Positions 35,619 through 61,556 of a DNA stretch of 64,000 bases are shown piece after piece. The translations under genes were made by a program, and so were the position numbers. Origin of the DNA: an uncultured Desulfobacterales bacterium (GTDB lineage: Bacteria; Desulfobacterota; Desulfobacteria; Desulfobacterales; CAJINA01); contig CAZWPX010000023.1 of NCBI GenBank assembly GCA_964636125.1, forward strand, positions 1,010 through 65,009. Direction: 5' to 3'. How positions within the stretch are numbered: position 1 is the first letter of the stretch; each line of letters opens with the position of its first letter. The notes under the pieces were generated by a model. It was not told the origin of the DNA, made no database searches, and saw nothing but the letters and a program-made list of their open reading frames with translations.

Positions 35619-35623
35619 GCAAA

Positions 35624-35920: not shown

Positions 35921-36510
35921 TATTTTGCGAAAACCTTCGCAATTTTGGCTTCCATTTCACCAGGAAGCGGTTTTCCTGATTCCATATCGATACAGTGTAC
36001 GGAGAACTTTCCTGCGGCCGTCACATGGACCGTGATGGTCCCGGGTGTCAACGTAATGGAATTGGCAAAAGTGGTACGGGCGACATCGCTGGAGAGTTTG
36101 CTGTCGAATTCTATGATCTTGGGATCGATCAGTTCCCGCATACGCGGGTGAAACACCAGGTACATGACATGCAGGTTTGCCAGAAAGATTTGATAAAGCA
36201 GCCATGGAATATAGCCCACAAACCGCAACCATACGAGAGGCAAATTCCGGTCCAGGGGCGCTGGAAAGAGTAAATCCCCGGATAAAAAAGCGACAATACC
36301 GCAGGAAACGGCACCCAAGATCAGATGGAATGCGTCAAATCTCCCTGAAAACACCAGCCACATTGCAAACATTGCCAGGAAGGTCAGCCAGAAGCCTGCG
36401 CCGAACCGCCTCGTTTTGACAGACAGGGGACTGCTTTCGACCTTTATTGATCTCGGCGGGTTGGATTGGGGCAAGCCGTTAGGGTCAGAAGTACGATTGG
36501 AAGTAGGCAT
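35920..36510 (-). CDS. mrpE: Mrp subunit E (with a ~45-aa N-terminal extension)
   Basis: FAMWLVFSGRFDAFHLILGAVSCGIVA...ANLHVMYLVFHP...TFANSITLTPGTITV is the MnhE pattern. It is the first gene of the operon. Confidence 0.8.
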   Translation of the reverse strand: MPTSNRTSDPNGLPQSNPPRSIKVESSPLSVKTRRFGAGFWLTFLAMFAMWLVFSGRFDAFHLILGAVSCGIVAFLSGDLLFPAPLDRNLPLVWLRFVGYIPWLLYQIFLANLHVMYLVFHPRMRELIDPKIIEFDSKLSSDVARTTFANSITLTPGTITVHVTAAGKFSVHCIDMESGKPLPGEMEAKIAKVFAK

Positions 36511-45147: not shown

Positions 45148-46707
45148 CTATTCCTGATCGAGCACATTCCTCACCATTTTCAGTAGATCCTCCCCCAGAT
45201 AGGGTTTGGAAAGAAACCCCCGGGTCTGAGCTTCGATCTGCTCCCAGCTCAATGTCTCGGGTTTAGTGGCCGAGGTAAGAACCACCTTCACGCCTGGATC
45301 GATCTGCAGCAACTCCTGCAGGCATCTTTCGCCCCCCATATTCGGCATGATCAAATCGAGCAGGATCATATCGATCCGGTTTTTTTCCTCGCGGTACAGT
45401 TTCAGGGCGTCTACCCCGTCCTCCGCCGTCAAAACACTGTAGCCAGCCATTTCCAGGCGCCGTTGCCCAAATAGTCGCATGGACGCCACATCATCCACCA
45501 GCAGAATTGTTTCGCCGCCGGTTTGAACGACATTCGTTTTTTTCTTCTCTACCGCCTTCACAGATCGGGGCGCTGCCGGCAGGAAAATTTTGAACAGGGC
45601 CCCTTTCCCCAGGACGCTCTTGCAGGTGATGAGGCCGTCATGATTCTGTATAATGCCGTACACCATGGCCAGGCCCAGACCGGTACCCTTGTCCGCCCGT
45701 TTGGTGGTAAAAAAAGGATCGAAGATCTGTTCAAGGGTCTCTTTGGCCATGCCCTGGCCGGAGTCGGCCACGCTGATGCAAACATAGGCTCCCGGAACCA
45801 GGTTGGGCTGCGACTTGCAGTAATCCGGGGTGAGGGTGACACTGGCGGTCTGGATGATCAGCTTTCCGCCGTCCGGCATGGCATCCCTTGCGTTGTTGAA
45901 GAGATTCATGAGCACCTGACCGATCTGGCCGGCATCGGCAGCCACCGGGGGCAGCGCTTCCTCGAGATTCAGGATCACCTCCAACTCGCTGGCTATTCCG
46001 TTTTTCACGAGACCGTGGAGCTGACGGACCTGCTGATTCAGATCGATCAGTTTTTTGATGCTTTCCAGTTTCCGACTGTAAGAGAGCATCTGCTGCACGA
46101 TATCGACACCCCTCTGGCAGGCATCAAAGATTGTATTTAATTCAGGATAGCCGGGGTCGTCGTGGCTATGACGGATCATGAGAAGTTCGGTCGAGCCCTG
46201 GATGGCTGCAATCAAATTCTTGAAATCATGGGCGATGCCGCTGGCCAGGGTCCCCACAGCTTCCAGTTTCCGGGCTTGCTGGAGCCGTTTTTCGAGCTGC
46301 CTGCGCTCGTTCGTCAGGCGGACCGCCCGGAGCATGTACCGCACCCGCTGTACCAGGATCATCCATTCGATCGGTTTGGTGATGAAGTCGGTGGCGCCGG
46401 CTTCATAGGCCCGGCTGATCGATTCGACATCCTCCAGGGCCGTGACCATGACCACCGGGATTAAATTTCCGCCCGGCAATTCGCGGATCGCCCGGCAGGT
46501 ATCGTAGCCGTCCATCTCAGGCATCATCACATCCAGCAGCACAATCGCCGGCTTCAACCGCTTGACCGCCTCCAGGCCTTCGACGCCGTTCACAGCTTCA
46601 GACACCGAAAAGCCCGCCTGTTGTAAGGACACTCGGGCGACTTCGCGGAGAATGGTATCATCATCGACAATCAGGATCTGGGACCGGGATTCCTTTTTGG
46701 GGGCCAT
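45148..46707 (-). CDS. Hybrid histidine kinase: REC-HisKA-HATPase-REC
   Basis: The N-terminal receiver has ILIVDDD...[12 protein letters not shown]. The H-box is [18 protein letters not shown], the G-box is DSGQGM...[12 protein letters not shown], and the C-terminal receiver has ILLVDD...[12 protein letters not shown]. Confidence 0.9.
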
Positions 46708-47189: not shown

Positions 47190-50100
47190 ATGAATAAATG
47201 GTTTAAAACCGCCTTGAAAACAATGTGTGATCGCCTGGGGGCAGGCACCCGCGGCGTACCTCGGCCGGTGCCGGGCAAAGCACCGAACGCCGGGCCCAGG
47301 CAGGATTCGTTTCCCGCAGGCATTCACTTCGAGGCCCTGGAACCCCGCCTGCTGCTTTCGGCCAGCGGAGACGGCATTGTTGCGGGTGTGGCCGTCCAGG
47401 CCGCTCCTTCGTCGGAACACGCTGCCATCGAAGCGGAAAACTTTCAATTCAACCAGTTGAACCAGTCGCTATCAACCAATCTCCTGCACACAACTGAAAT
47501 CAAGGAGAGCGGCCTTTCCCAGGGCAACTCAACTCCCCAAGGGAGCAATCCGGTATCCCATCCTGCGGACGCCACCACGACAAACAATGAAAACCAACTG
47601 GTTTCGTCAATACCAGCAGAATCGGTTGACATCCTGACCAGTATAGAAAGCCATGTTCTGGATACGGTCCTCGAACGTTCTGAACTGGTGGTAATCGATG
47701 GGGGCATCCAGGACACCGATACGCTGATAAATGATCTTTTGGCTGATCGAGACGATGGCCGTACGATAGAGGTTGTGATTATAGACCCGGAACAGGACGG
47801 TTTTGAACAGGTCAGTGACCTGCTGGCCACGCGCCAGGGGCTGGATGCGGTTCATTTTGTCTCCCACGGAACGGATCGCGGTGTAAAGCTGGGTGACACG
47901 TGGCTCTATCCGGGTAATCTCGATGACTATGCGGGTGATATCGCCGGATGGAAAGATTCCCTGGCGGCGGAAGCGGATCTACTTTTTTATGGTTGTGATC
48001 TGGCCGCCGGCGAAGAGGGACAGGCCTTGCTCGCTTCTTTGGGCGAATTGACCGGTGCGGACGTTACAGCAAGCGATGATGACACCGGCCATGCGCTTTT
48101 AGGTGGAGACTGGGATCTGGAATACCGGGCAGGCGATCTCGAGACCGCTGTTGCATTCAGCGCAGAACTACAGCATCACTGGGACGGACTCCTGGCGCCC
48201 CCGACTCTCGACCTGGATGTAAACAACAGCTCAGGCGCAGGAGGTAACGATTATCAGCTCACGTATACGGAGGGAGACGTTGCCACAGCCATTGCCGACA
48301 CCGACTCCGATGTTGCCGATGCAGATTCCACCACCTTTGATCACGTGACGCTTTCAGTGAGCGGGTTGTTGGATGGCAACGCCGAGGAGATGGTGCTCGA
48401 CGGAGACACTTTTGCGCTGTCCACGGCGGTTGCAGGTCAGAACACCAGTGGTCTTAAGTACACGGTAACGGTAACAGCGGTACCGGGATCGGGCACGGCC
48501 ACGATGACGATCACCAAGCAGGGCGGTGGGACGTTTACCGAGGTCGAGACCGAAGCACTGATCGAAGAGATTAAATATCGTCATGCCGACGACAACCCGA
48601 GCGACGGCAATCGTACGATCGACATGACGGTCAACGACGGATCAGTCGACAGTGCGGCGGCGCGAACGACGATCAACGTCGATCCGGTCAACGATGCACC
48701 GACCCTGACCGTGTTTTCAGCCCCAATCAAAACGTCGTCCCAAGATGAAACGGTGACCATCACGTTTGGCGACTTGACGACTCAGGGTGATGAGGCAGAT
48801 GTGGACGGCACAGTGGATGCGTTCATCGTCAAGGCGGTATCGAGCGGCACACTGTTGATCGGCGCATCTAAGGGCTCTGCCGCAGCTTGGGCGGCCGGAA
48901 CCAACGACACAATCAGTGGTTTGGATAAAGGGTTCTGGACGCCAGTCAGCGGTGCTACGGGTACGCTAAATGCCTTTACGATGGTTGTCGAGGACAACTC
49001 GGGAGCCGAATCGGCCACCCCAGTTCAGGCGCAGGTATCGGTCACGGCCAATAATGTACCGACGCTGACGGCGTTTGCGGCTCCCATCGATACGACGGCC
49101 GAGGACACACAGGTAGATATCACGTTTGCCGAACTGGTGGCCCAGGGTGATGAGGCGGATGTTGACGGTACGGTGGACGGTTTTGTGGTCAAGGCGGTCA
49201 CGAGTGGCACGCTTTTAATTGGTACGGATGCGGGTAGTGCAACGATCTGGGCAGCGGGCAGCAACGATACAATCGATGCGGCAAACAATGCTTACTGGAC
49301 GCCGGATAGTGATGCGAACGGGACGCTGAATGCTTTTACAGCTGTGGCCTTGGACAACTCGGGAGCCGAATCAGCCACTCCGGTTCAGGCGCAGATAACG
49401 GTGACCGCGGTCAACGATGCGCCCACCGCGACGAACCTGAGTGCCCCGGAGAGCTACACCGAGGACACGGCGCTCAATCTGACCGACATCGTGGTCACTG
49501 ATGTGGACAGTGCCACTGTCACGGTGACCCTGACCTTGTCGGATCCGGCGGCCGGCTCCCTGAGCACCGGCACATCCGGTGCGGTGACCTCGACCTTTGC
49601 GGCCGGGGTGTGGACCGCCTCGGGCGCCCTTGCCGATGTCAACACCCTGCTGGCCGGCGTCACCTTCACCCCGGCGATCAACTACAACAGCAACTTTAAC
49701 ATCGCCACCGGCGTCTCTGACGGTGCGGCCCCGGCGATCACCGGCACCAAGGTCATGACCGGCGCCGCGGTCAACGATGCGCCCACCGCGACGAACCTGA
49801 GTGCCCCGGAGAGCTACACCGAGGACACGGCGCTCAATCTGACCGACATCGTGGTCACTGATGTGGACAGTGCCACTGTCACGGTGACCCTGACCTTGTC
49901 GGATCCGGCGGCCGGCTCCCTGAGCACCGGCACATCCGGTGCGGTGACCTCGACCTTTGCGGCCGGGGTGTGGACCGCCTCGGGCGCCCTTGCCGATGTC
50001 AACACCCTGCTGGCCGGCGTCACCTTCACCCCGGCGATCAACTACAACAGCAACTTTAACATCGCCACCGGCGTCTCTGACGGTGCGGCCCCGGCGATCA

Positions 50101-51311
50101 CCGGCACCAAGGTCATGACCGGCGCCGCGGTCAACGATGCGCCCACCGCGACGAACCTGAGTGCCCCGGAGAGCTACACCGAGGACACGGCGCTCAATCT
50201 GACCGACATCGTGGTCACTGATGTGGACAGTGCCACTGTCACGGTGACCCTGACCTTGTCGGATCCGGCGGCCGGCTCCCTGAGCACCGGCACATCCGGT
50301 GCGGTGACCTCGACCTTTGCGGCCGGGGTGTGGACCGCCTCGGGCGCCCTTGCCGATGTCAACACCCTGCTGGCCGGCGTCACCTTCACCCCAACCGGGG
50401 GCTACGCCGGTGACTTTACCATCGCCACAAGTGCGAACGACGGCACGGCACCGGTGGTGACGGGAGTAAAAAATGTGTCCCTGGCAGCCGCTGCCGATCC
50501 AACGCCGCCGACGCTCCCTGCGGAAGACAATGATCCAGATCCGGTAACTCCGCCCGAGCCCGATCCAGAGACACCTGAAGACGAATCCGCACCCGCGGAC
50601 GTCGCAGAAGAGGCTCCTGCCGAGGCCGAAGCCGAGGCCTTGAATGAAGATGATTCGGGTGATACCGTAACGGCGGTTCCACCGACAGCCGCCGGAGCCG
50701 TGTCTTCACAACAGCGGCTTGCCTCGAACACGCTGCGTGGATTTATACAACGGTCCCTCCGGGGCCTGAGCCTTGAACAGGTTGCGGAGATCGACCTCAA
50801 AGAACTCCGGGAAATGACGGCCGAGACCCAACCGGCCTGGTCTGTTGCCCAGACCCGGGCAGCATCAATGACCTTTGGTACCCGGCTGACTGATTTGGGC
50901 ATTCGGACAGTTCTCGCATTCGATTTCCTGGAAAACTCGCTGGACGGGCTCCAACAAGAAGCAGAGGAAGAGATCGCGCTCAACCAGGTGGTTGCAAGTT
51001 CCGCCATTGCCGTAACGACAGGCCTGTCCGTGGGGTATGTGGCCTGGCTGCTGCGAAGCGGCGTGCTGCTCAGTTCTTTGCTGTCTTCCATGCCGGCCTG
51101 GCGGATTCTGGATCCGTTGCCTGTGCTTGCAGGAAAACTGGACGATTTCGAGGAGACGGACGAAGAATCCCTGGAGACCATCATCGAGCGGCCGTCGCCG
51201 CCTTCCGCCGATGACGACCCGAATGATGCATCTGCCTCTGTGGACGTTGCGGACGAAGTCGTGAAGGACGTGAAAGACGTGAAAGACGTGAAAGACGTGA
51301 AGGAAACGTAA
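47190..51311 (+). CDS. Giant repeat protein: N-terminal LEPR-XLL motif, DUF4347, cadherin-like repeats, acidic/Pro-rich linker, C-terminal TM segment
   Basis: FEALEPRLLLSA lies at 47328..47363. The DUF4347-like block runs ELVVIDGGIQD...DAVHFVSHG...LLFYGCDLAAGEEGQALL...GADVTASDDDTGH..LGGDWDLEY. Repeats of ~120 aa are bounded by VNDAPT. The segment SAIAVTTGLSVGYVAWLLRSGVLLSSLLSSMPAW is hydrophobic. No RTX GGxGxD array was seen. Confidence 0.9.
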   Translation: MNKWFKTALKTMCDRLGAGTRGVPRPVPGKAPNAGPRQDSFPAGIHFEALEPRLLLSASGDGIVAGVAVQAAPSSEHAAIEAENFQFNQLNQSLSTNLLHTTEIKESGLSQGNSTPQGSNPVSHPADATTTNNENQLVSSIPAESVDILTSIESHVLDTVLERSELVVIDGGIQDTDTLINDLLADRDDGRTIEVVIIDPEQDGFEQVSDLLATRQGLDAVHFVSHGTDRGVKLGDTWLYPGNLDDYAGDIAGWKDSLAAEADLLFYGCDLAAGEEGQALLASLGELTGADVTASDDDTGHALLGGDWDLEYRAGDLETAVAFSAELQHHWDGLLAPPTLDLDVNNSSGAGGNDYQLTYTEGDVATAIADTDSDVADADSTTFDHVTLSVSGLLDGNAEEMVLDGDTFALSTAVAGQNTSGLKYTVTVTAVPGSGTATMTITKQGGGTFTEVETEALIEEIKYRHADDNPSDGNRTIDMTVNDGSVDSAAARTTINVDPVNDAPTLTVFSAPIKTSSQDETVTITFGDLTTQGDEADVDGTVDAFIVKAVSSGTLLIGASKGSAAAWAAGTNDTISGLDKGFWTPVSGATGTLNAFTMVVEDNSGAESATPVQAQVSVTANNVPTLTAFAAPIDTTAEDTQVDITFAELVAQGDEADVDGTVDGFVVKAVTSGTLLIGTDAGSATIWAAGSNDTIDAANNAYWTPDSDANGTLNAFTAVALDNSGAESATPVQAQITVTAVNDAPTATNLSAPESYTEDTALNLTDIVVTDVDSATVTVTLTLSDPAAGSLSTGTSGAVTSTFAAGVWTASGALADVNTLLAGVTFTPAINYNSNFNIATGVSDGAAPAITGTKVMTGAAVNDAPTATNLSAPESYTEDTALNLTDIVVTDVDSATVTVTLTLSDPAAGSLSTGTSGAVTSTFAAGVWTASGALADVNTLLAGVTFTPAINYNSNFNIATGVSDGAAPAITGTKVMTGAAVNDAPTATNLSAPESYTEDTALNLTDIVVTDVDSATVTVTLTLSDPAAGSLSTGTSGAVTSTFAAGVWTASGALADVNTLLAGVTFTPTGGYAGDFTIATSANDGTAPVVTGVKNVSLAAAADPTPPTLPAEDNDPDPVTPPEPDPETPEDESAPADVAEEAPAEAEAEALNEDDSGDTVTAVPPTAAGAVSSQQRLASNTLRGFIQRSLRGLSLEQVAEIDLKELREMTAETQPAWSVAQTRAASMTFGTRLTDLGIRTVLAFDFLENSLDGLQQEAEEEIALNQVVASSAIAVTTGLSVGYVAWLLRSGVLLSSLLSSMPAWRILDPLPVLAGKLDDFEETDEESLETIIERPSPPSADDDPNDASASVDVADEVVKDVKDVKDVKDVKET
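49405..50392 (+). repeat. 2.7 copies of a 100%-identical 360-bp (120-aa) tandem repeat
   Basis: A line-by-line comparison shows 49405-49764 equals 49765-50124, which equals 50125-50392 (a partial third unit). Two older, diverged ~120-aa units precede it (~48700-49400). Confidence 0.95.
51261..51305 (+). repeat. 9-bp microsatellite (gtgaaRgac)x5 encoding (VKD)n at the C-terminus of the giant protein
   Basis: gtgaaggac gtgaaagac gtgaaagac gtgaaagac gtgaaggaa. Confidence 0.9.
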
Positions 51312-51314: not shown

Positions 51315-54239
51315 ATGGGCAGGTTGAACGTCAAATTCCGCGTGGTTGCAGGCATGGTCGGTCTGGTGATCAGCCTCATCTTTCTGGCCCTCTATCTCGG
51401 CATCATTCCGGACCGGATCGGCGCGGTGCGAAAAGGACGCACGTCCCTCGCCGAAGCCCTTGCGGTACACAGCGCGGCCCTGGTGATGACGTCCGACTTT
51501 CAGCGCCTGAAAGCCGATCTGGACCTGATTTCAAAAAGAAATCCCGGTCTGCTTTCCCTTGCCCTGCGACGGGCAGATGGCCGCAGCACGATTTCGATCG
51601 GCGATCACGACGGCCAGTGGCAACCCATGCAAGAAAACTTCACGAAAGCCAACCAGATCCGGGTCCCCATATCCGACGGCAAGCAAAACTGGGGGCAGCT
51701 GGAGCTGCGATTCAATCCCCTGCAGGACCAGGGGCTCAAGGGAATCCTCCAAACACCATGGGTCCAGATCGGGCTGTTTCTCGGGATAGGATGCTTTGTC
51801 ACCTTTTACCTGTATCTGGGCAGAGTGCTTCGCCAACTGGACCCCTCCCAGGCCATCCCCGGCAGGGTGCGCGCCGCCCTGGACACCATGGCAGAGGGGT
51901 TGCTGGTCGTTGACCCGAAGGAACAAATCGTGCTCGCCAACAAGTCTTTCGCCGACCTGTTTCAAAGATCACCGGATAAGTTTCTGGGTCACAAGGCCGG
52001 AGAACTGCCCTGGATCGACACGGAGGGGAATAAGATAGAAAAAGAAAACCGCCCGTGGATCCAGGCCCTGAAACAGGGGAAGCTTCAGAGGAAGCAAATG
52101 TTGCGGCTGCAGGTTTCGGCCGACGAGTGGCGGACCTTCAATGTCAACTGCGCGCCGGTATTGGGTTCTGCGGAAAAGCCTGCGGGGGTACTCATCAGCT
52201 TCGACGATGTAACCCAACTCGAGAAAAAAGAGATCGAACTTCGCAAATCCAAGGAAGAAGCCGAAACCGCCAACCAGGCAAAGAGTGTGTTCCTGGCCAG
52301 CATGAGCCACGAAATCCGCACACCCATGAATTCCATTCTCGGTTTCACGGAGATCCTCAAGCGCGGCTATGCCCGCAGCAAAGAAGAGACCCGCCGACAC
52401 CTCAATACCATTCATTCCAGCGGGAAAAACCTGCTGGCCCTGATCAATGACATTCTGGACCTGTCGAAAGTAGAGTCCGGCCGCATTGAGGTGGAAAAAA
52501 CCTGGGACGAGCCCCATCGGATTGCCCAGGAGGTCCTTAAGACTCTGAAAGTCCAATCGGAAGAAAAAGGACTTTATCTCCGATTCAATGCGGAGAGTGC
52601 GCTGCCGCAAAAAATCGAGACCGATCCGACGCGTTTCCGGCAGATTATTTTCAACCTGGTGGGAAACGCCATCAAGTTTACGGAAACAGGCGGTGTGACG
52701 GTCGGCCTGCGCTTTAAGAACAACCGCAGAAGGCCCCTTTTGATTGTCGACATCACCGACACCGGCATTGGAATCCCGAGTGAGAAGATCGGCAGTATTT
52801 TCGACCCCTTCACCCAGGCGGATTCTTCGATAACCCGCCATTTCGGCGGAACGGGTCTCGGCCTTTCCATCAGTCGAAAATTTGCCCGACTGCTGGGCGG
52901 AGATATCCGGGTATCCAGTCAGCCGGATAAGGGCAGCCGGTTCAGGGTTATCCTGGCTACGGGAGACACGACCTCGATTCCTTTTCTCCAACCCGAGGAA
53001 GTGGCCTTGACCCTGGAAGAGACCGCTAAGGCCAAACCTGACCGGTGGCGGCTGAACAGGTCACGCGTCCTGGTGGTGGAAGACGGCGTTGAAACCCGTG
53101 AACTCCTCCGGCTGTTGCTCGTCCAGGCGGGAGTAGACGTGTACGAGGCGGAAAACGGGCTGGAGGGTGTCAGAAAAACCACCACCGAACCCTACGACGT
53201 CATCCTGATGGATGTAAACATGCCGGTCATGGACGGCTTTGCCGCGGCCGGGAAAATGCGGCAGAACGGGGTGAAGTCACCGATCATCGCCATGACCGCC
53301 AACGCCATGAAAGGCTCTGAGCAGGAATGTCTGGCGGCTGGATACTCGGGGTACCTCCCCAAGCCCATCGATATCGACAAGCTCATGCAGATGATGGCGG
53401 ATCTCGTGGGCGGAGACCAGGTCAAGGAAATGGACGATGCGTCCCCCGGCATTCCCGCAATGCCGGAAATCGCTTCCGCGGAAAAGCAAGCAGCACCGCC
53501 GCATCCCCTCGTATCCAGCCTGCCGATCAGCGACCCGGAGTTTCAGAAAATTATTATCCGATTTGAATCCCAGCTTCGCGACAAGCTGAAATCCGCGGTC
53601 CGGGCCCGGGAGCGGGGTGACCTTGCCGAATCGGCTGCCTTCGCTCACTGGCTCAAGGGAGCGGGTGGTACCGTGGGCTTCGCTGAATTTACCGAACCGG
53701 CCCGACAACTTGAACAGCTGGTAAATGAAGGGGCCGATGTATCTGAAATGACCGCGGCATGGAAAGCTATTCGCCGGCTGGCCATCCGCCTTGCTGACAC
53801 TATAGCTGACCTGGCGATATCTGCGGCTACCGGGACCGGAGCAGCAGCATCGCCGACTCCGTCGGAAGCCCCTTCCTCTGCCCACACCGCAGGCACCGCT
53901 GTGACACCTCTGGTTTCCCGCTACGCAGAGCTCCCGGAATTTCAGCCGATTATTCACCATTTCATCGAAACGCTCGATGAAAACCTGTCAAAAATGGAAC
54001 TGGCCTATGTGCAGGAAGATTGGAAACAGCTGGAATCCCTGTCGCACTGGTTGAAAGGGTCAGGTGGTACGGTGGGTTTTGATGCCTTCACAAAACCTGC
54101 AGCGGAGCTCGAAAAATTCGCCAAGGCGCAACAGGCGGACCAGGCCGGAGGAATGCTGGATAAGCTAAAGCGGCTGAAAAACGCAGCCCTGCACCCGGAT
54201 GCAGGTGGACACGGCACAGAGCCGGCATCAATCCTTTAA
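51315..54239 (+). CDS. Hybrid sensor kinase: TM-periplasmic loop-TM, PAS, HisKA, HATPase, REC, 2x HPt
   Basis: It starts 3 nt after the giant gene's stop. The H-box is LASMSHEIRTPMNSILGF, the G-boxes are DTGIGI and GTGLGLSISRKF, and the receiver is VLVVEDG...ILMDVNMPVMDG. Two HPt motifs are present: HWLKGAGGTVGF and HWLKGSGGTVGF. Confidence 0.9.
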   Translation: MGRLNVKFRVVAGMVGLVISLIFLALYLGIIPDRIGAVRKGRTSLAEALAVHSAALVMTSDFQRLKADLDLISKRNPGLLSLALRRADGRSTISIGDHDGQWQPMQENFTKANQIRVPISDGKQNWGQLELRFNPLQDQGLKGILQTPWVQIGLFLGIGCFVTFYLYLGRVLRQLDPSQAIPGRVRAALDTMAEGLLVVDPKEQIVLANKSFADLFQRSPDKFLGHKAGELPWIDTEGNKIEKENRPWIQALKQGKLQRKQMLRLQVSADEWRTFNVNCAPVLGSAEKPAGVLISFDDVTQLEKKEIELRKSKEEAETANQAKSVFLASMSHEIRTPMNSILGFTEILKRGYARSKEETRRHLNTIHSSGKNLLALINDILDLSKVESGRIEVEKTWDEPHRIAQEVLKTLKVQSEEKGLYLRFNAESALPQKIETDPTRFRQIIFNLVGNAIKFTETGGVTVGLRFKNNRRRPLLIVDITDTGIGIPSEKIGSIFDPFTQADSSITRHFGGTGLGLSISRKFARLLGGDIRVSSQPDKGSRFRVILATGDTTSIPFLQPEEVALTLEETAKAKPDRWRLNRSRVLVVEDGVETRELLRLLLVQAGVDVYEAENGLEGVRKTTTEPYDVILMDVNMPVMDGFAAAGKMRQNGVKSPIIAMTANAMKGSEQECLAAGYSGYLPKPIDIDKLMQMMADLVGGDQVKEMDDASPGIPAMPEIASAEKQAAPPHPLVSSLPISDPEFQKIIIRFESQLRDKLKSAVRARERGDLAESAAFAHWLKGAGGTVGFAEFTEPARQLEQLVNEGADVSEMTAAWKAIRRLAIRLADTIADLAISAATGTGAAASPTPSEAPSSAHTAGTAVTPLVSRYAELPEFQPIIHHFIETLDENLSKMELAYVQEDWKQLESLSHWLKGSGGTVGFDAFTKPAAELEKFAKAQQADQAGGMLDKLKRLKNAALHPDAGGHGTEPASIL

Positions 54240-54634
54240 CTATGACGGATTCGAAATCCCGCCTCATCCAGTCGGCATCAATACAGTCGCTGCTTGATGC
54301 AAAAATTATGTCTGCAGTGATTTCTCTGGGAAAAAATCTCGGTATGTTGACCGTTGCCGAGGGGCATTGTGCAGTATGCCGATCTCGAGCACCGAACTTG
54401 AGCTGCTCTTTCACAGCTCGACTCACCAACGACGTGAGCGCGTTCCAGAGGATGGTCGTCCCGAAAAAGATAGGCCGGGTCATCTCGCCCCATAGAGAGT
54501 CTTCTCCCGGTCCACTGAACATGATGATTTTTTCACCGGCAGGCGTTCCCGGGCTGGCCGTATGTTTTTATTATTTATGAAATCAAAAGTGGTATTGTTG
54601 GACAAATGACCTAAAATATTATAAAAGTTGACTC

Positions 54635-55489
54635 ATGATTGCCAAATTCAAATCAAGCCTGTTTCTGATAGCTGTCATCGGGCTCCTGGCTGTCAGCCCC
54701 GCCGTCTCCCATTCGCTGGAAGTTCAGGCGGTAACCATTCCCAGCGCGGACGTCACGCTTTCCTTTGTGGTTTCCGGAAAAATCGCAGAAATTCTCGTCA
54801 AAGAAGGCGACAGTGTGAAAAAGGGTGCCCTGCTGGCTGCGTTGCACGATGATCCTGAACGAATTCAAACCGAGCAATTGAAGGTTCAGGCCGCGGACAT
54901 GACCCGTATCCTGTCGGCAAAAGCGGAACTGGCCCAGAAAATAGTGGACCTGGAAAAGCTCGATGCGGCCAGGAAAAAGGGTGCGGTCAGCGACTGGGAA
55001 GTCGCACATATGAAGCTGAGCGTTCGCATGGCGAAGCTGGCGCTCCAGGCGGCGACAATCGAACATGAGCAATCTCAGCGCCAGTACTCCCAGGCAGTCC
55101 AACAGCTCGAGCGCATGCGCATCGTGTCCCCGATTCCGGGGCGCGTGGAAAAGGTCTCCATTGAGGCCGGAGAAGGGATTGAAAAACTCGGACCGGTGGT
55201 TCAACTGGTCAGGACCGATCCGCTCTGGCTCGATGTCCCGGTCCCCCTGCCCCAGGCAAAGCAGCTGGCCATGGGGCAACGGGCCGCGGTCCGGTTTCCG
55301 GGTGATCCAACCGGTAAATCAACGGATGGTCGGATTGTCTACATCTCGTCCGTCGCAGATGCGGCCAGTGACACCCTGCGGGTCCGTATCGAAGTGGGCA
55401 ATCCTTCCGATCGTCCGGCAGGAGAGCGGGTGACCGTTGGCTTTCCGCTAATTCAAACCGGCAAGGTTGGGGACACTTCCCAAAATTGA
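54635..55489 (+). CDS. HlyD/RND-type periplasmic adaptor (membrane fusion protein 1)
   Basis: The N-terminal signal/anchor is SLFLIAVIGLLAV. It has a lipoyl-like half (VSGKIAEILVKEGDSVKKGALLAAL), a coiled-coil hairpin, IVSPIPGRVEKVSIEAGE and a beta-barrel tail. Confidence 0.85.
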   Translation: MIAKFKSSLFLIAVIGLLAVSPAVSHSLEVQAVTIPSADVTLSFVVSGKIAEILVKEGDSVKKGALLAALHDDPERIQTEQLKVQAADMTRILSAKAELAQKIVDLEKLDAARKKGAVSDWEVAHMKLSVRMAKLALQAATIEHEQSQRQYSQAVQQLERMRIVSPIPGRVEKVSIEAGEGIEKLGPVVQLVRTDPLWLDVPVPLPQAKQLAMGQRAAVRFPGDPTGKSTDGRIVYISSVADAASDTLRVRIEVGNPSDRPAGERVTVGFPLIQTGKVGDTSQN

Positions 55490-55494
55490 AGACG

Positions 55495-57312
55495 ATGAAC
55501 GAACTGCAGCAAACCGAAGGGCCTTTCACCAGGGTTCTCACTCGGGTACTTGCCAGGCAGTGCCGACAGGTGCGGGCGGCCGGCGGCGCAATGCTGCAAC
55601 CCGTCGAAGAGAAACGCCTGCTCCTCCTTGCGGCTTTTCCGCAATCAGACACCCAAAACGGGCTTCCCAAATGGCTCTCCCCTGCCCTGAACACCTGCCT
55701 GGAGGTCCTGTCCAGCGGAAAGGCGGCGATTGTGCCGGAATCCCCGCAGCAGGGGGCCGGCGGACAGACCGGGAGCCGGATCCTTGTCATTCCGATTCAA
55801 AAAAAGAACAATGTCCGGGCAGTGGCTGCATTTCTCGTCCCCGAGCAAAACCCCCGGAGGCTGGCGGTTATAGAAAAGAGGCTGGCCACCACCTCCTTTC
55901 TACTGAACCACTGCGAACTGCAACTGACCCTGGAAAAACACCGGAAGGCGATCGATCGCCTCTCCCTCGCGCTGGGTGTCATTTCAGTGTGCAACCAATC
56001 CAGCCACTTCACGAGCACCGCCATGGCCTTGTGCAACGAGCTTGCCGAAAAATTAAGATGCCACCGTGTCAGCCTCGGCGTTCTGGAAGGCCGCTACGTC
56101 CGCGTCCGCGCCATGAGCCGGACCGACACGTTTCACCGGGAGATGAAGCTGACCCAGGACATCGAGGCAGCCATGGAAGAGTGTCTGGACCAGGACCTGG
56201 AAATCATTCGCCCGGCGGCCGCAGATGCCGTCTACGTCAGCCGCGCAGCCGGGCAGCTTTCCCAGCGGCATGGGCCATCCGCCGTGCTCTGCGTGCCGGT
56301 CCGGATAAACGGCGGCGTGGCCGCCGTCATCACCCTGGAGCGATCTTCGGAGCGGCCGTTTACAAGCCTGGAAGAGATCGAGGCCGTCAGGCTGGCTTGC
56401 GACCTGTGCGCCCCGCGGCTGATGGACCTGCGGGAGAATGCGCGGTGGTTCGGCGCCCGCATGGCCGCAGCGGTTCGAAAAAAAGCAGGGACGATTTTTG
56501 GACCGCAACACACGGGATTGAAGCTGGGGGCCGTCCTCATTTTTCTCATCGCAGTGTTTCTTGTGTTCGCCAGGGGGGAGTACCGCGTCGGCGCCCCGTT
56601 TATCTTCGAGGCCTCGATTCAGCAAGCCGTCGTGGCCCCGTTTGACTCCTATATCAAAAACGTTCACGTGGATCCCAGCGACGCGGTAATCGCTGATCAA
56701 ACCCTATTGGGCGAGCTGGAGACTTCCGATTTGAGACTCGAACAGGCCGCGCTCAAGGCACAGCAGCAGGGGCATCGGAAACAACGTGCAGCCTCGATGC
56801 GCGACGGAAAAACGGCCGAAGCCCAGATGGCCGAGGCTCAGATTGACAAGCTGGCGGCTGAAATCCGCCTCATCGAAGGCCATATCAAACAGGCCGCACT
56901 GGTGGCGCCGATTTCCGGGCGACTCGTTTCGGAAGATCTCAAACGGCGTCTGGGAGCGCCGGTGGAAGCGGGCGACATTCTCTTCGAAATCGCCCGCATC
57001 GAATTACTGAGGGCCGAGCTTTACGTGCCGGAAGATTCGATTGCGCTGGTGAATATCGGTCAGGCCGGTGAATTGGCCGCCGTCGGCCATCCGGATCGGA
57101 AAATTCGGTTTGTGGTGGAACGCATCACGCCCCTCGCCGAGGTAGTCAACCAGGTCAATTCGTTCCGGGTGCGGGCCCGTTTGCACGACAGGCCGAAATG
57201 GATGCGGCCGGGCATGGAAGGCCTTGCCCGGATCGATGTAGGGAAAAAACGCTATGTGTGGATCTGGACCCATCGGTTGACCGACTGGCTCAGGATGAAG
57301 CTTTGGCTTTAA
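55495..57312 (+). CDS. GAF-GAF-TM-HlyD fusion (membrane fusion protein 2 with a cytoplasmic sensor module)
   Basis: About 330 cytoplasmic aa carry two GAF-like units (…ALCNELAEKLRCHRVSLGVLEG…VLCVPVRINGGVAAVITLER…). One TM follows (LGAVLIFLIAVFLVFA), then a HlyD coiled coil and VAPISGRLVSEDL. A TTG at 55486 overlapping the upstream stop is an alternative start. Confidence 0.85.
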   Translation: MNELQQTEGPFTRVLTRVLARQCRQVRAAGGAMLQPVEEKRLLLLAAFPQSDTQNGLPKWLSPALNTCLEVLSSGKAAIVPESPQQGAGGQTGSRILVIPIQKKNNVRAVAAFLVPEQNPRRLAVIEKRLATTSFLLNHCELQLTLEKHRKAIDRLSLALGVISVCNQSSHFTSTAMALCNELAEKLRCHRVSLGVLEGRYVRVRAMSRTDTFHREMKLTQDIEAAMEECLDQDLEIIRPAAADAVYVSRAAGQLSQRHGPSAVLCVPVRINGGVAAVITLERSSERPFTSLEEIEAVRLACDLCAPRLMDLRENARWFGARMAAAVRKKAGTIFGPQHTGLKLGAVLIFLIAVFLVFARGEYRVGAPFIFEASIQQAVVAPFDSYIKNVHVDPSDAVIADQTLLGELETSDLRLEQAALKAQQQGHRKQRAASMRDGKTAEAQMAEAQIDKLAAEIRLIEGHIKQAALVAPISGRLVSEDLKRRLGAPVEAGDILFEIARIELLRAELYVPEDSIALVNIGQAGELAAVGHPDRKIRFVVERITPLAEVVNQVNSFRVRARLHDRPKWMRPGMEGLARIDVGKKRYVWIWTHRLTDWLRMKLWL

Positions 57313-57382: not shown

Positions 57383-59566
57383 TTGACGGTGACCGCAACA
57401 CGCCCGACATTTATCGAATCCTGGTACCGCGTGGCCAATTTGTGCCCGAAGCTGCTCCCGGCGGTGAACGTGCACCGCCAGCATTTCCGGGGCGTCCAGT
57501 GGTACGTTCTCCAGAACCCGGCCAACAATGAATATTTCCGTCTCAGCCACGGGGCCTATCACTTCGCCGCGATGCTCGACGGTCGCCTCACCGTGGACCG
57601 GGTATGGCGGACGTGCATGGACGCATTCGGCGACGAGGCGCCGACCCAGGGCGAAGTCGTCGATCTGCTTACCAGGCTCTATGCGGCCAACCTGCTCCAG
57701 GGCGATGTGGCCCCGGACGTGGAAGCGCTGTTTCAGCGGCATCAGAAGCGCGCGTGGCGGGAAATTAAAGGATTTTTTCGCAATTTCCTTTTCATCCGGA
57801 TTCCCCTGTGGGATCCGGATCGATTCCTGGAAAGATGGGCCCCTGTTTTCGGAAAATTCTTCACGGTCCATGGCCTTTTCCTCTGGGTCGGTATCATGTT
57901 AGCCGGGTTGTGGGCGGTCGGCGGACACTTCGGAGACCTGACCCGGCAGGCCGCGGGTGTTTTGAACCCGAAAAACCTGCCCCTGCTGTACGCCGCGCTC
58001 GTCATCGTCAAAGTGTTTCACGAAATGGCCCATGCGTTTGCCTGCAAACAGTTCGGGATGCGGGCGGGAACCGGGGGCGAGGTGCACCGGATGGGGGTGA
58101 CGTTCCTCGTATTCGCACCGCTGCCCTACGTAGAGGCGTCCAGTGCCTGGGCCCTTAGGGACAAATGGCAGCGGATCGTCGTCGGTGCCGCCGGCATGCT
58201 GGTGGAACTGGCGATCGCTGCGATTGCAGGCATTCTCTGGGTCCGGACCGCCGAAGGGGCCACCGTACATGCCATCGCCTACAACGTGATGTTTGTCGCC
58301 AGTGTGTCCACGCTGCTCTTCAACGGAAACCCGTTCCTGCGATACGATGCCTATTACATCCTGCTGGATCTCCTCGAAATTCCCAACCTCGATTCCCGGT
58401 CCAAAGCCTACCTTGCCTTTCTGGCCAAACGTAATCTGTGGAACCTCAAACAGGTCCATGATCCCAGCCACACGCCGGGAGAACGGGGGTGGCTCGTATT
58501 TTACGCCCTGACCGCCATGGGTATCCGTGTGGCCGTGGCAATAGCGATTGTGCTGTTTCTCGGCAGCCAATTTTTTCTGATCGGGGCGGTGGTTGCGGTC
58601 TTCATGGCTGCAACCTGGATTTTCCTTCCCCTGGGAAACTTGCTGCGCTATCTGGCCATCAGCCCCGAGCTTGCCCGGATCAGACCCCGGGCGGTTGTCA
58701 CCAGCGCAGCCGCAGCCGCGGTCCTTCTCGGGGCCGTCGGCCTCGTTCCCATGCCGGAGCGCTTTCGCATCGAGGGTGTGGTGGAGCCGATCCGCTACGC
58801 GGTCATCCACATGAAAGCCGACGGATTCGTCGACGGGTTCCTCGATTCCGGGAAAAAGACCGGTCCGAACGGCCTCCGCCTGCTTACCGCGGTCTCCCCG
58901 ATTCTGGAAACCCGGCGCGATCAGCTGCATGCCGAACGCCGCCGGCTCCAGGTGCGGCGAAAACACGCCCAGGCCCGTGAGACGGCGGCGGTACAGATTA
59001 TCGCAGAAAAAATCGCCGCCCTGGAAGAAAAAATCGCACGCAACCGCCGGGAGATGGCGGATCTGAACCTGCAAGCACCCATTCAGGGCACCTGGGTGGC
59101 CCCGAACATTGACCGGCTCCGGGGGGTGTACCTGAAGCGGGGTCGACATGTCGGGGTGGTCGCAGATCTGGACGCCCTGAGAATCCGAGCCGTTGCCGGC
59201 CAGACAGTGGCGGCAGAGCTTATTCGGGATGCCGGATCCGCTGTCGAGATCAGAGTCAAAGGCAACCCGAGTGCGACCTACGACGGCCGAATCGAGACGA
59301 TCATTCCGGCGGGACAGGAACGGCTGCCGTCTGCCGCCCTCGGCTATGCAGCGGGGGGCTCGACCCAAACGGCCCTGGATGACCCGGAGGGCCGGCAGGC
59401 CTCCGAACCGTTTTTTGAAATCCTGGTGGTTCCGGATATTCCCGAAGGAAGGCGGCTGATGCCGGGGCAGAGCACGGTGCTGCGGTTTGACACCGCCGCG
59501 AAACCACTGCTGGTACAGGCATGGAAAACCATTTTGCAACTTTTTCAGAGGAGGTTTAAAGCCTAA
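57383..59566 (+). CDS. PqqD/RRE-like domain + M50 (site-2-protease-like) membrane metalloprotease + HlyD adaptor, single polypeptide
   Basis: The N-terminus (WYVLQNPANNEYFRLSHGAYHFAAMLDGRLTVDRVWRTCMDAFGDEAPTQGEVVDLLTRLYAANLL) fits the PqqD-like peptide-binding pattern. HEMAH lies at 58019..58033 within a polytopic region. The C-terminal coiled coil plus LQAPIQGTWVAP is HlyD-like. The start is TTG 57383 or GTG 57389. Confidence 0.85.
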   Translation: MTVTATRPTFIESWYRVANLCPKLLPAVNVHRQHFRGVQWYVLQNPANNEYFRLSHGAYHFAAMLDGRLTVDRVWRTCMDAFGDEAPTQGEVVDLLTRLYAANLLQGDVAPDVEALFQRHQKRAWREIKGFFRNFLFIRIPLWDPDRFLERWAPVFGKFFTVHGLFLWVGIMLAGLWAVGGHFGDLTRQAAGVLNPKNLPLLYAALVIVKVFHEMAHAFACKQFGMRAGTGGEVHRMGVTFLVFAPLPYVEASSAWALRDKWQRIVVGAAGMLVELAIAAIAGILWVRTAEGATVHAIAYNVMFVASVSTLLFNGNPFLRYDAYYILLDLLEIPNLDSRSKAYLAFLAKRNLWNLKQVHDPSHTPGERGWLVFYALTAMGIRVAVAIAIVLFLGSQFFLIGAVVAVFMAATWIFLPLGNLLRYLAISPELARIRPRAVVTSAAAAAVLLGAVGLVPMPERFRIEGVVEPIRYAVIHMKADGFVDGFLDSGKKTGPNGLRLLTAVSPILETRRDQLHAERRRLQVRRKHAQARETAAVQIIAEKIAALEEKIARNRREMADLNLQAPIQGTWVAPNIDRLRGVYLKRGRHVGVVADLDALRIRAVAGQTVAAELIRDAGSAVEIRVKGNPSATYDGRIETIIPAGQERLPSAALGYAAGGSTQTALDDPEGRQASEPFFEILVVPDIPEGRRLMPGQSTVLRFDTAAKPLLVQAWKTILQLFQRRFKA

Positions 59567-59567: not shown

Positions 59568-61556
59568 GTGATCCAGGTACCGAGCATAAGCTGGCGGATG
59601 CTTTCTCAGGAGCCCTCCCGGGTGGAAATTCCCCGAGGCCTGGACAGAGCGTGGCATCGGGCCGCCGGTGCCGCCGGGAGTGTTTCCCTTCGAACAAAAA
59701 GATTTATCCGCCGGGCGGAGGGTATCGTTTCCATGGACAAGCTCTTTGCGCACCTATCCGACAAAGAGTTGAGTAAAATAATCCCGCCCCTGCGGGATCG
59801 ATTTCGCCTTGGCCGGGACACAGCCGAAGATCAAAACCGGGCCTTTGCCATCGTCCGGGAAGTCGCCGGGAGAACGATCGGCATGCGCCCCTTTACGGTC
59901 CAAGTGGCCTGCGGGCTGGCAATGGAATCCGGCTGCATTGCGGAAATGGCCACCGGTGAGGGGAAAACCCTGGCCGCAACCATGCCCGCCGTTCTGGCGG
60001 GCTGGCGCAACCGGGGATGCCACGTGGTGACGGCCAATGAATACCTGGCCGCGCGGGATGCCGGTTGGATGGCGCCTGTTTACCGGTTCTGCGGATTGAC
60101 GGTCGGATGGGTGGCAAACACCATGGGCCCGGAGCAACGGCGGCGGGCCTACGACGCTCACATCACTTACTGCACAAGCAAGGAGATCGCAGCCGATTTC
60201 CTGCGCGACCGTCTTACCCTGGGCCCCATCCGGGGACTTTCTGCAGCGCTTCTGGCGAAACTGGCCGGACGCGGCCCCGACCGGATCAACGGCCTGGTTC
60301 AAAGCAGCCTGGGGTGTGCCATTATAGACGAAGCCGACGCGGTGCTCGTGGACGAAGCGGTCACACCGCTGATCATTTCAGGTTCCGGGCAGAACCCGGA
60401 CCATGCACAAGCCATTGCCGAAGCCGCTCGTCTGGCCGCGAAGCTTGCGCCGGAAAAGGACTACCGGGTAGATCGGCGATATCACGAAATCACCCTGACC
60501 GCAGCCGGAGAGGCCCGGATGGCCGGGATGGCCGAATCCCTTGGCGGCCTTTGGAGAATTTCCCGGCACCGTGAAGAACTCGTCGTTCAAGCGATCACTG
60601 CCCGGGAATTTTTTGTTCGGGACAAGCAGTATGTCGTCGACAATCAGACGGTGGTCATCATCGATGAATTCTCAGGGCGGCTCATGCCCGACAGGACCTG
60701 GCGTGACGGTCTCCACCAGGCGATCGAGGCAAAAGAGGATCTCGAGATTCATCTGCCCAGGGAAACCCTGGCCCGGATCAGCTTCCAGCGTTTTTTTCGT
60801 CTTTACGGGAAGCTGTCCGGAATGACGGGAACCGCGGCAGAGATTCGAAATGAATTCTGGCAAATTTACCGTCTTCCGGTGGTCGTCATCCCGCCCCGGC
60901 GCGCCTGTCAACGGTCCCTGCGACCGGATCGCATATTTTCAAATAAAGATGCGAAATGGAGGGCGGTCATCGATGAAATCCGCAGCGCGCACGAAATCGG
61001 GCGGCCGGTCCTGGTGGGGACCCGCAGCGTGGCAGCCAGCGAGTCTCTTGGCCGGCAGTTAACCGTCGAAAAGCTGGATCACGAGGTCCTCAATGCCGTC
61101 CGGCATGACGCCGAGGCGAGGATCATCGCCGACGCCGGCCGAAGCGGGCGCATTACCGTCGCCACGAACATGGCCGGGAGAGGAACCGATATCCGCCTGG
61201 GCCCCAATGTAGCCGAGCTGGGGGGACTGCATGTGGTCGCCACCGAGCTTCACGAAACCCGCCGGATCGACCGGCAATTATACGGCCGGTGCGCCCGCCA
61301 GGGCGATCCCGGCAGCGCCCGGGCTTTTGTGAGCCTGGATGACGAATTGCTGCAGCAGCACGCACCTCCGGTCTGGAAAAAAACGGGGTCCGGCACTGGA
61401 GACGGAGGCCGGGAAATCACTTCTGTCTTTTCCCGCCGACGGATCGAACGCGCTCAGCGCCGTGCTGAGCGGGCCGCTTTTCACCGGCGCAGGGAAGTGC
61501 TTCACACAGACCACTGGCTTGACGAACACCTGGGATTTGCGCTTAAAGAAATCTAG
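59568..61556 (+). CDS. SecA-like ATPase, C-terminally truncated paralogue (NBD1-PPXD-NBD2 + first scaffold helix only)
   Basis: It is collinear with E. coli SecA. EMATGEGKTLAA is the Walker A motif (59955-69). Other matching motifs are VVTANEYLAARD, IIDEADAVLVDEAVTPLIISG, RTWRDGLHQAIEAKE, FFRLYGKLSGMTGTA, ATNMAGRGTDI, GGLHVVATELHETRRIDRQLYGRCARQGDPGS. It ends ~40 aa into the scaffold helix (about 650-660 aa, against ~900 for SecA). Start is GTG 59568 or ATG 59598; the track start at 59487 overlaps the previous gene. Confidence 0.9.
   Translation: MIQVPSISWRMLSQEPSRVEIPRGLDRAWHRAAGAAGSVSLRTKRFIRRAEGIVSMDKLFAHLSDKELSKIIPPLRDRFRLGRDTAEDQNRAFAIVREVAGRTIGMRPFTVQVACGLAMESGCIAEMATGEGKTLAATMPAVLAGWRNRGCHVVTANEYLAARDAGWMAPVYRFCGLTVGWVANTMGPEQRRRAYDAHITYCTSKEIAADFLRDRLTLGPIRGLSAALLAKLAGRGPDRINGLVQSSLGCAIIDEADAVLVDEAVTPLIISGSGQNPDHAQAIAEAARLAAKLAPEKDYRVDRRYHEITLTAAGEARMAGMAESLGGLWRISRHREELVVQAITAREFFVRDKQYVVDNQTVVIIDEFSGRLMPDRTWRDGLHQAIEAKEDLEIHLPRETLARISFQRFFRLYGKLSGMTGTAAEIRNEFWQIYRLPVVVIPPRRACQRSLRPDRIFSNKDAKWRAVIDEIRSAHEIGRPVLVGTRSVAASESLGRQLTVEKLDHEVLNAVRHDAEARIIADAGRSGRITVATNMAGRGTDIRLGPNVAELGGLHVVATELHETRRIDRQLYGRCARQGDPGSARAFVSLDDELLQQHAPPVWKKTGSGTGDGGREITSVFSRRRIERAQRRAERAAFHRRREVLHTDHWLDEHLGFALKEI

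Follow-up and report, generated by a model that had tools for sequence, protein, structure and literature searches.

The closest described counterparts of the locus reported here are the LapA/LapBCE/LapD-LapG system of Pseudomonas fluorescens and the RTX adhesins such as MpIBP, in which a giant protein without a Sec signal is encoded beside HlyD/TolC genes. The same holds for a gene at positions 47190-51311 of a 64,000-nt stretch of DNA (the window) from an uncultured Desulfobacterales bacterium (contig CAZWPX010000023.1, positions 1,010 to 65,009). To judge from profile matches, its product, called the cargo below, is a member of the catalogued families LEPR-XLL and DUF4347, and it also carries an uncatalogued C-terminal module that is coupled to a histidine kinase. 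To our knowledge, neither a function nor an export route has been assigned to the thousands of very large bacterial proteins that bear LEPR-XLL and DUF4347, the giants of phototrophic consortia among them. In the literature we found LEPR-XLL only as the N-terminal motif of giant proteins, DUF4347 only in connection with type VI secretion (the T6SS), and no paper on a system made of M50-HlyD, SecA-like and TolC components. On balance, the cargo is probably recognised by its N-terminus as the substrate of a tripartite exporter that lacks an ATP-binding cassette (ABC) transporter, with a C-terminal helix that stays associated with the membrane beside the kinase.

The Lap system also shares with the cargo system a protease component, linked cyclic di-GMP (c-di-GMP) enzymes and a terminal module proposed to retain the protein on the cell. 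The cargo system, however, has no RTX repeats and no ABC exporter, has three adaptors instead of one, and adds an M50 protease and a SecA-like ATPase; it has its conserved membrane module at the C-terminus, linked to a histidine kinase, and probably its recognition element at the N-terminus. Neither a LapG-type protease nor a LapD-type receptor was found when the genes flanking it on either side were scanned with Pfam. The classical type I secretion system (T1SS) resembles the locus in the adjacent membrane fusion protein (HlyD) and TolC-type genes, but was rejected as an assignment since RTX repeats and an ABC gene are missing. Leader-dependent T1SSs, which use peptidase-containing ABC transporters (e.g. 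CvaAB-TolC of colicin V), share a short conserved N-terminal leader, a protease within the inner-membrane component, HlyD and TolC. They differ in their double-glycine leader, their C39-ABC fusion and their peptide substrates, whereas the cargo system has LEPRxLLSA, an M50-adaptor fusion and substrates of 1000-5000 amino acids (aa).

Single parts of the locus recall other systems. The M50 domain of the fusion protein in the window matches families of M50 proteases that mature ribosomally synthesised and post-translationally modified peptides (RiPPs) and use PqqD-like recognition domains, and a PqqD-like domain precedes it on the N-terminal side. The window protein scores 142 bits with the daptide HExxH model and 36 bits with the YydH/LiaK model of NCBIfam, but these values are below the equivalog cut-offs, and the protein is fused to HlyD, has no RiPP precursor or modification genes near it and has a giant partner. 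The sorting systems LPXTG/sortase, PEP-CTERM/exosortase and GlyGly-CTERM/rhombosortase also combine a C-terminal hydrophobic helix bearing signature residues with a nearby membrane protease. The module of the cargo, in contrast, spans about 90 aa, is followed by an acidic tail of 26-77 aa instead of a short basic cluster, and is coupled to a kinase, not to a sortase-type enzyme. Accessory Sec (SecA2) loci likewise place a second SecA-type ATPase beside a large adhesin with an atypical N-terminus and a C-terminal anchor. Here, however, SecY2 and Asp genes are absent, the ATPase is truncated and scores 417-551 bits with the SecA2 models against cut-offs of 725-1100, and the locus is Gram-negative with TolC and HlyD.

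Downstream of the cargo and kinase genes lie the genes of the putative export apparatus (Table 1), and Pfam and NCBIfam scans of the window operon found no ABC, resistance-nodulation-division (RND) or major facilitator superfamily (MFS) transporter. About 90 related loci besides the window formed the comparison set. The module alignment was used to scan 185,579 species, each represented by a single genome. This gave 417 confirmed sites, and the best 80 loci were analysed; they come from Desulfobacterota, Nitrospirota, Oceanospirillales, Thiotrichales, Granulosicoccaceae, Methylococcales, Chromatiales and Betaproteobacteria, cultured strains included. GAF-HlyD, M50-HlyD or SecA-like genes lie within 10 kb of the cargo gene in 30 of the 80 loci (19 of the 29 with full flanks), in 14 cases upstream on the same strand, in 13 downstream and in 3 on the opposite strand. 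This conserved linkage survives rearrangement and is therefore good evidence of a functional connection between cargo and machine. When loci were anchored on the machinery instead, five of six carried a cargo gene (the window, L003, L089, L090 and L091). The latter four have the order giant DUF4347 protein, kinase, (regulator), HlyD, GAF-HlyD, M50-HlyD, (SecA-like), OEP; in L085 the machinery set is divergently transcribed. At the level of gene content, these comparisons show that the cargo and the gene set are co-inherited in differing gene orders across phyla. LEPR/DUF4347 giants with TolC and three HlyD adaptors beside them, one adaptor being the M50 fusion, are found in Desulfobacterota, Nitrospirota, beta- and gammaproteobacteria and on E. 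coli plasmids.

Five open reading frames (ORFs) in the 80 loci had both Walker A and LSGGQ motifs, one of them of exporter size, and no family of ABC exporters recurred when the ORFs of all the loci were clustered. The same comparison shows that the apparatus falls outside the definition of a T1SS, having no ABC exporter. An earlier interpretation of this stretch (the sequence-only reading) had proposed that the cargo is delivered by the adjacent machinery, and the conserved but rearranged gene neighbourhoods in several phyla support this strongly; homologues did not routinely sit beside classical T1SS ABC/MFP genes in the 80 loci or on plasmids.

The plasmid-borne relatives bear on which end of the cargo the machine would read. 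DUF4347 N-termini are present on 114 plasmids, and the C-terminal module on no plasmid. Plasmids of Kosakonia, Escherichia coli and Burkholderia encode a protein of 2347-4473 aa with an N-terminal LE[SP]R motif and DUF4347 domain, without RTX repeats or a membrane segment. Next to it, in this order, come TolC, a pair of HlyD genes and a gene for an M50-HlyD fusion; there is no ABC, SecA-like or kinase gene. Among three such cargos the first 350 aa are common (E 1e-38 to 1e-48), while the last 300 aa are without similarity. Because the plasmid cargos are alike at the N-terminus only, the element that cargos have in common is N-terminal, and the module goes with the kinase. The N-terminal export tag claimed by the sequence-only reading is thus upheld indirectly, in that cargos apparently served by the same machine have only the N-terminal LEPR and DUF4347 region in common. 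The E. coli example is L093 (plasmid pKL53-L, NZ_CP030920.1, 109718-129511), with L092 and L094 as further cases. Among 5426 complete E. coli genomes, 24 have the M50-HlyD gene of this reduced cluster, for the most part on a plasmid. The clusters of Kosakonia and Burkholderia adjoin genes for a 'tail fiber protein', which has a phage tail collar domain. An Azospirillum DUF4347 protein has no LEPR motif, 30 GGxGxD (RTX) motifs and no such machine nearby.

The C-terminal module, in turn, is linked to the hybrid histidine kinase. In 74 of the 80 module loci the 974-aa kinase has a homologue, at 40-88% identity over about 97% of its length, with its start within 150 nt of the cargo stop in 72 of the 74 (median gap 12 nt), and every kinase-bearing locus checked has the module. 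Within this sample, the comparison shows the module wherever, and only where, this specific hybrid histidine kinase directly follows. In the kinase, the juxtamembrane stretch (aa 161-200) is far better conserved than the two membrane helices or the periplasmic loop. A protein of about 590 aa with REC, GGDEF and EAL domains follows the kinase in 58 loci, and one divergent locus has a REC-HD protein instead. The REC-GGDEF-EAL gene is missing in the window and in the close relatives L003 and L011. As relatives carry the full gene at this place, the lineage of the window seems to have deleted the regulator. A 112-aa ORF there (54242-54580) was rejected as a gene, having no homologue in any related locus and a possible EAL remnant inside it. 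Upstream of the cargo gene, a divergent REC-HisKA-HATPase-REC protein occupies the same position in L001, L037 and L040; in Desulfobacterales it may belong to one regulatory unit with the cargo locus. An Rfam scan of the 482-bp AT-rich upstream region for c-di-GMP or other riboswitches gave no match at E up to 1, and a promoter and terminator scan gave nothing above chance expectation. Two or three cargo-type genes (with module or DUF4347) stand in tandem or close together in L079/L081 (contig CAVXWS010000076.1) and L080.

The module was searched with aa 1170-1338 of the cargo against 1.84 billion cluster representatives, which gave 3874 matches at E ≤1e-3 and 1478 at E ≤1e-10. In the best 150 of the 3874 matches the module stood at the extreme C-terminus: the aligned query positions were about 70-167, and the match ended no more than a few tens of residues from the protein end. 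Module carriers among the matches listed reach 3522 aa. Their consensus runs LDxxRxE, some 12 aa, VGSxxAxSTGLSVGYVxWLxRGGxLLSSLLSSLPAWRxxDPLPVLA, an acidic run and DDESLESxV, and nine columns of the alignment are invariant (G, Y, W, G, P, A, W, D, P). Of 41 matches of at least 700 aa, 26 begin with LEPRxLLSA; 15 start within repeat or passenger sequence, as if their N-termini had been cut off. The module is covered by none of the Pfam and NCBIfam models, and a lenient Pfam scan of the last 273 aa was also empty. The only NCBIfam matches of the cargo are LEPR-8K and tand_rpt_95, and thus no curated sorting-signal model (PEP-CTERM, GlyGly-CTERM, LPXTG or others) applies. A likeness of the C-termini of LEPR giants to MtxA, taken from a preprint, was rejected: MtxA is a protein of 313 aa with a signal peptide and without a membrane segment, and is for these reasons unrelated to the module. 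By its pattern of conservation the module is an uncatalogued unit of about 90 aa found family-wide, not a generic anchor.

The hydrophobic helix of the module is the most hydrophobic stretch of the cargo (Kyte-Doolittle, KD19 1.61). A simple Hessa-scale sum for it is +2.7 kcal/mol, and the anchors of the neighbouring kinase and adaptors give -1.3 to -2.9. The charges of its flanks (N-side 1.7 K/R and 4.2 D/E; C-side 2.0 K/R and 2.25 D/E) weakly favour an orientation with the passenger out and the tail in (N-out/C-in). The sequence-only reading had noted a long hydrophobic segment about 90 aa from the end and had taken it for a membrane tether. The segment is there, but starts about 103-107 aa from the end, and a tether remains plausible but not as a generic anchor, given the family-wide module; its hydrophobicity is marginal, and in the sample the presence of the module tracks the adjacent hybrid kinase. 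The acidic tail ending in (VKD)n was correctly described: the last 71 aa contain 22 D/E and 8 K/R. The (VKD)n stretch is a 9-bp tandem repeat of 5.1 copies (51256-51301) that is missing from the orthologues. A Pro/acidic linker comparable to that of the cargo is present in 91 of 125 family proteins, about 170 aa upstream of the hydrophobic core (background Pro 3.6%). In the passenger, the copy number of the 360-bp repeat may be unresolved in the assembly.

Table 1. Features of the cargo gene and its neighbours in the window (positions of the window; aa positions refer to the protein concerned)
Feature	Positions	Strand	Description
Cargo ORF	47190..51311	+	1373 aa, ATG start, TAA stop, net charge -152, 2 Cys
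Basic N-terminal leader	47190..47324	+	aa 1-45, 8 K/R, 2 D/E, without hydrophobic h-region
LEPR-XLL motif	47325..47366	+	aa 46-59 (HFEALEPRLLLSAS), NF012209
DUF4347	47685..48194	+	aa 166-335, Pfam E 1.6e-52, probable clan-CD-like His-Cys fold
Passenger	48195..50483	+	aa 336-1098, cadherin-like/tandem-95-type repeats; Cadherin_4, Cadherin_5 and tand_rpt_95 matches
Tandem repeat	49405..50392	+	360-bp unit, 2.7 copies, 100% identical, aa 739-1068
Linker	50484..50663	+	aa 1099-1158, Pro/Asp/Glu-rich, poor in basic residues
Conserved C-terminal module	50919..51185	+	aa 1244-1332: amphipathic helix, hydrophobic helix, DPLPVL, acidic run, DEESLETII
Hydrophobic segment	50988..51101	+	aa 1267-1304 (VVASSAIAVTTGLSVGYVAWLLRSGVLLSSLLSSMPAW); stretch SAIAV...MPAW, aa 1271-1304 (nt 51000-51101)
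Acidic C-terminal tail	51129..51308	+	aa 1314-1373, including (VKD)n repeat
Hybrid histidine kinase	51315..54239	+	974 aa; 2 transmembrane segments, PAS, HisKA, HATPase, REC, 2 Hpt; 3 nt after cargo stop
Possible EAL-like remnant	54305..54364	+	20 aa, inside 112-aa ORF 54242-54580; weak match, E 0.29
Divergent REC-HisKA-HATPase-REC protein	45148..46707	-	519 aa; same upstream position in L001, L037, L040
HlyD-type periplasmic adaptor	54635..55489	+	284 aa
GAF-transmembrane-HlyD adaptor	55486..57312	+	608 aa
PqqD-like + M50 metalloprotease + HlyD fusion	57389..59566	+	725 aa; HEMAH, NGNPFLRYD
SecA-like ATPase	59598..61556	+	652 aa; NBD1, PPXD, NBD2
OmpA-domain + TolC-like (OEP) outer-membrane protein	61601..63667	+	688 aa

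The cargo gene is the sole long ORF at its position, and its ATG start is supported because the N-terminus of the orthologue P0001 (50% identity) is equally long and collinear from the first residues. Many assemblies hold orthologues with the same ends. As the sequence-only reading had claimed, the motif FEALEPRLLLSA (aa 47-58, nt 47328-47363) is of the LEPR-XLL type; the match to the hidden Markov model (HMM) NF012209 scores 23.5 bits against a cut-off of 17. In the family the logo is [FL]E.LEPR[LIV]L[LF]SAD, at a median of 22 aa and a minimum of 3 aa from the N-terminus (n=130). Absence of a Sec signal was also confirmed. Before the motif the best 10-aa Kyte-Doolittle window is just 0.27, that is, no h-region; in aa 1-120 the best segment on the Hessa scale is +7.1 kcal/mol, that is, no Sec-type hydrophobic segment; and inspection of the cargo N-terminus found neither a twin-arginine motif nor a lipobox. 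By these hydropathy and motif heuristics there is no Sec/Tat-type signal. The leader is basic as described (net +6 in aa 1-45) and only partly unstructured: AlphaFold2 (AF2) models a helix at aa 3-16, with the remainder of aa 1-45 at low confidence. The cargo contains no GGxGxD motif and has no HemolysinCabind match, in line with the reported lack of RTX repeats. With the motif in 130 distinct N-termini and the C-terminal segment in thousands of proteins, these features are far beyond chance.

The DUF4347 domain, likewise recognised in the sequence-only reading, matches PF14252 over the whole model (positions 1-164 of 164; 178 bits against a gathering score of 24.6). A lenient Pfam scan of the region gave no further family. 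Two sites are near-invariant, H226-G227 (47865-47870) and Y267-G268-C269 (47988-47996); H226-G227 and C269 are conserved in at least 90% of 90 sequences. In the AF2 model of the domain (pLDDT >94) they sit at the ends of the strands E218-224 and E258-267. The top Foldseek match is Tce1 (9qpe_G), followed by legumain and caspases, the latter two weak (E 1e-3 to 1e-2, low TM-scores); a search of solved structures by sequence gave a marginal match only. Tce1 (PA0256, PDB 9QPE) is a DUF4347 cargo of the T6SS that its authors align to the protease domain of TcdB and propose to be a His-Cys protease, an activity that is likewise only putative (PMC13323088). Tce1 and the clan CD autoprocessing domains (the cysteine protease domain of TcdB/MARTX, caspases, legumain), the best structural matches of the modelled domain, share with it a conserved His-Gly and a Cys at strand ends. 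Unlike the cargo, Tce1 is small and has no LEPR motif. On the strength of the model, DUF4347 is predicted to be, and probably is, a clan-CD-like His-Cys protease. We know of no activity for any DUF4347 domain.

Taken together, what the sequence-only reading had observed is borne out and how it was interpreted is partly supported; it had missed the link to the kinase and the probable His-Cys protease-like nature of DUF4347. The mechanism that we propose runs as follows, and we infer all its steps, from export and cleavage to anchoring and adhesion, from sequence. The cargo would be a cell-surface protein with cadherin-like repeats and the dedicated substrate of an adjacent envelope-spanning apparatus made of a TolC-like channel, three HlyD-type adaptors (one an M50/PqqD-like fusion, one a GAF fusion) and, here, a SecA-like ATPase. 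It would be synthesised without a Sec signal, and its short LEPRxLLSA leader would be read in the cytoplasm. The most plausible readers would be the PqqD-like domain, which is of the leader-peptide-binding type and with M50 would work as in RiPP leader peptidases, and/or the SecA-like ATPase. The leader may then be trimmed by the M50 protease or by the cargo's own DUF4347 His-Cys domain, and the chain would enter the HlyD/TolC conduit N-terminus first. The marginally hydrophobic C-terminal helix would be kept in the inner membrane, packed against helices of its partners, so that the Pro/Asp/Glu-rich linker would cross the envelope and the acidic DEESLETII tail would be cytoplasmic. In this position the helix would inform the kinase about the condition of the surface protein, and through the kinase c-di-GMP turnover would be set in most relatives.

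Several observations weigh against N-terminal recognition by this exporter and membrane retention of the helix. With 21.1 bits, the PqqD match in the window protein falls short of the 23.4 bits that Pfam requires, and the plasmid M50-HlyD versions showed no PqqD domain at all. The SecA-like gene is missing between M50-HlyD and OmpA-OEP in the otherwise complete L003 and L089 clusters; because it is missing there and from the plasmid clusters, the ATPase is not a universal motor. Apart from the M50 membrane domain, no inner-membrane channel component was identified. The helix is also only marginally hydrophobic in the family as a whole (median Hessa sum +2.55 kcal/mol, none below 0), and at +2.7 kcal/mol in the cargo stable anchoring is not assured; AF2 gives one long helix at aa 1229-1300, in a C-terminal model of low overall confidence. 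The complete genome L002 has the five-gene machine and no LEPR/DUF4347 gene within 10 kb. Finally, one DUF4347 match (P0082) bears HemolysinCabind, and a Vibrio protein of about 8000 aa is reported to combine an N-terminal LEPR-XLL motif with C-terminal RTX/serralysin-type domains (PMC10868602); because of these two, the N-terminal region is not exclusive to the TolC/HlyD/M50 machine. Just upstream of the machine in L002 (CP070692.1, 1490613-1512790) lie a 211-aa EAL-only ORF and a 481-aa protein without a Pfam match, possibly the remains of a lost cargo, kinase and regulator block.

Export might instead proceed C-terminus first as in a T1SS, with the module as the signal and the LEPR/DUF4347 region, folded in the cytoplasm, as a LapA-style retention plug; autocleavage between LEPRxLL and SA by the His-Cys domain would set the adhesin free under c-di-GMP control. 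C80 protease domains cleave after Leu, which would suit such a cut. A giant repeat adhesin together with HlyD/TolC and c-di-GMP enzymes mirrors the logic of Lap, the DUF4347 domain resembles autoprocessing Cys protease domains (PMC13323088), and the Vibrio giant with its C-terminal RTX-type domains (PMC10868602) and the Azospirillum DUF4347 protein with its 30 GGxGxD motifs point the same way. We nevertheless consider this route unlikely. The plasmid cargos of a homologous TolC/HlyD/M50-HlyD set have no conserved C-terminus or module, the module tracks the kinase rather than the machine, a conserved hydrophobic helix of 35-40 residues is unlike known T1SS signals, and with the motif as near as 3 aa to the N-terminus cleavage would take off almost nothing. 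The intact M50 active-site motifs (HEMAH and NxxPxxxxD) allow another account, intramembrane proteolysis, in which the M50 protease cuts the C-terminal helix and thereby frees the protein into the conduit or, Notch-like, releases the tail to the kinase. Substrates of site-2 proteases (S2P) tend to have marginally stable helices rich in Gly, Ser, Thr and Pro, and so does the cargo; the conserved DDESLESI motif on the cytoplasmic side and the strict kinase adjacency would also fit. Yet the M50-HlyD machine serves cargos without a helix too, no site-1 protease is evident, and known S2P substrates are usually N-in/C-out, whereas the flank charges weakly favour N-out/C-in here. This account also seems unlikely to us.

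A two-step route, in which the SecA-like protein acts as an accessory SecA2 that feeds SecYEG and HlyD/TolC then crosses the outer membrane, is quite improbable. Accessory Sec systems do export large adhesins with atypical N-terminal signals and C-terminal anchors, and the ATPase retains NBD1, PPXD and NBD2 with intact ATPase motifs and scores on SecA2 models. All its SecA and SecA2 scores are under the curated cut-offs, however, and of the 789 model positions it matches roughly the first 606, with no Pfam match to the helical wing domain or the C-terminal parts; because the match stops there, it appears to lack the distal SecA regions, those in contact with SecY included. An h-region is also missing from the LEPR region (+7.1 kcal/mol), as is the ATPase from many clusters. 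The C-first, proteolysis and SecA2-like explanations are partly non-exclusive. That the cargo is not exported at all, being a tail-anchored cytoplasmic protein of the inner membrane, or is an assembly artefact of its repeats, we regard as barely credible. A missing signal peptide would suit the former; the perfect 360-bp repeat, which makes mis-assembly possible, and the absence of the exact cargo from the protein collection searched, in which the neighbour proteins were found, would suit the latter. Against them stand the cadherin-like repeats, a net charge and a Cys content typical of extracellular Ca-binding adhesins, the orthologues with the same ends in many assemblies and the consistent linkage to TolC/HlyD genes. 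N-terminal recognition with a membrane-associated helix beside the kinase is the reading that we prefer.

A sequence search of solved structures with the M50-HlyD protein gave no match, and a metagenome scan with it found 3 short loci only. Elsewhere in the window, positions 3978-22344 hold a pfa-type polyunsaturated fatty-acid synthase cluster (KS-AT-ACPs-KR-DH, KS/CLF-FabA-type DH and the enoyl reductase PfaD), in which an overlapping 872-aa ORF (10774-13392) has no Pfam match. Genes for MnhB/MnhE-type subunits on the reverse strand at 26389-36510 suggest an Mrp/Mnh-type cation/proton antiporter or a related membrane-bound complex. These clusters and the other remaining genes of the window are unrelated to the cargo.

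It is possible, though we put it forward tentatively, that the locus represents an undescribed secretion-and-signalling system, in which TolC and three HlyD proteins work without ABC, RND or MFS transporters, an M50/PqqD-like component, optionally with the SecA-like ATPase, recognises the leader of giant adhesins, and in one large subfamily the C-terminal helix serves as kinase input for c-di-GMP signalling. As it stands, we class the locus as a variation on giant adhesins that have their own tripartite exporter and are controlled by c-di-GMP, but the chance is substantial that the whole system is of a new type. Three points are testable: that the exporter consists of TolC, three HlyD proteins and M50 without an ABC protein, that the N-terminus is probably what is read, and that the common module is wired to the kinase and c-di-GMP. 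Full versions of the system occur in the cultured Neptuniibacter caesariensis MED92, Neptunomonas japonica DSM 18939 and Desulfosarcina alkanivorans PL12, and with these strains and the E. coli plasmids the questions are open to experiment. If the proposal is true, it would describe a secretion route outside the type I definition and connect a surface adhesin physically and directly to two-component signalling, with an envelope-spanning surface protein that would act as a contact or tension sensor.

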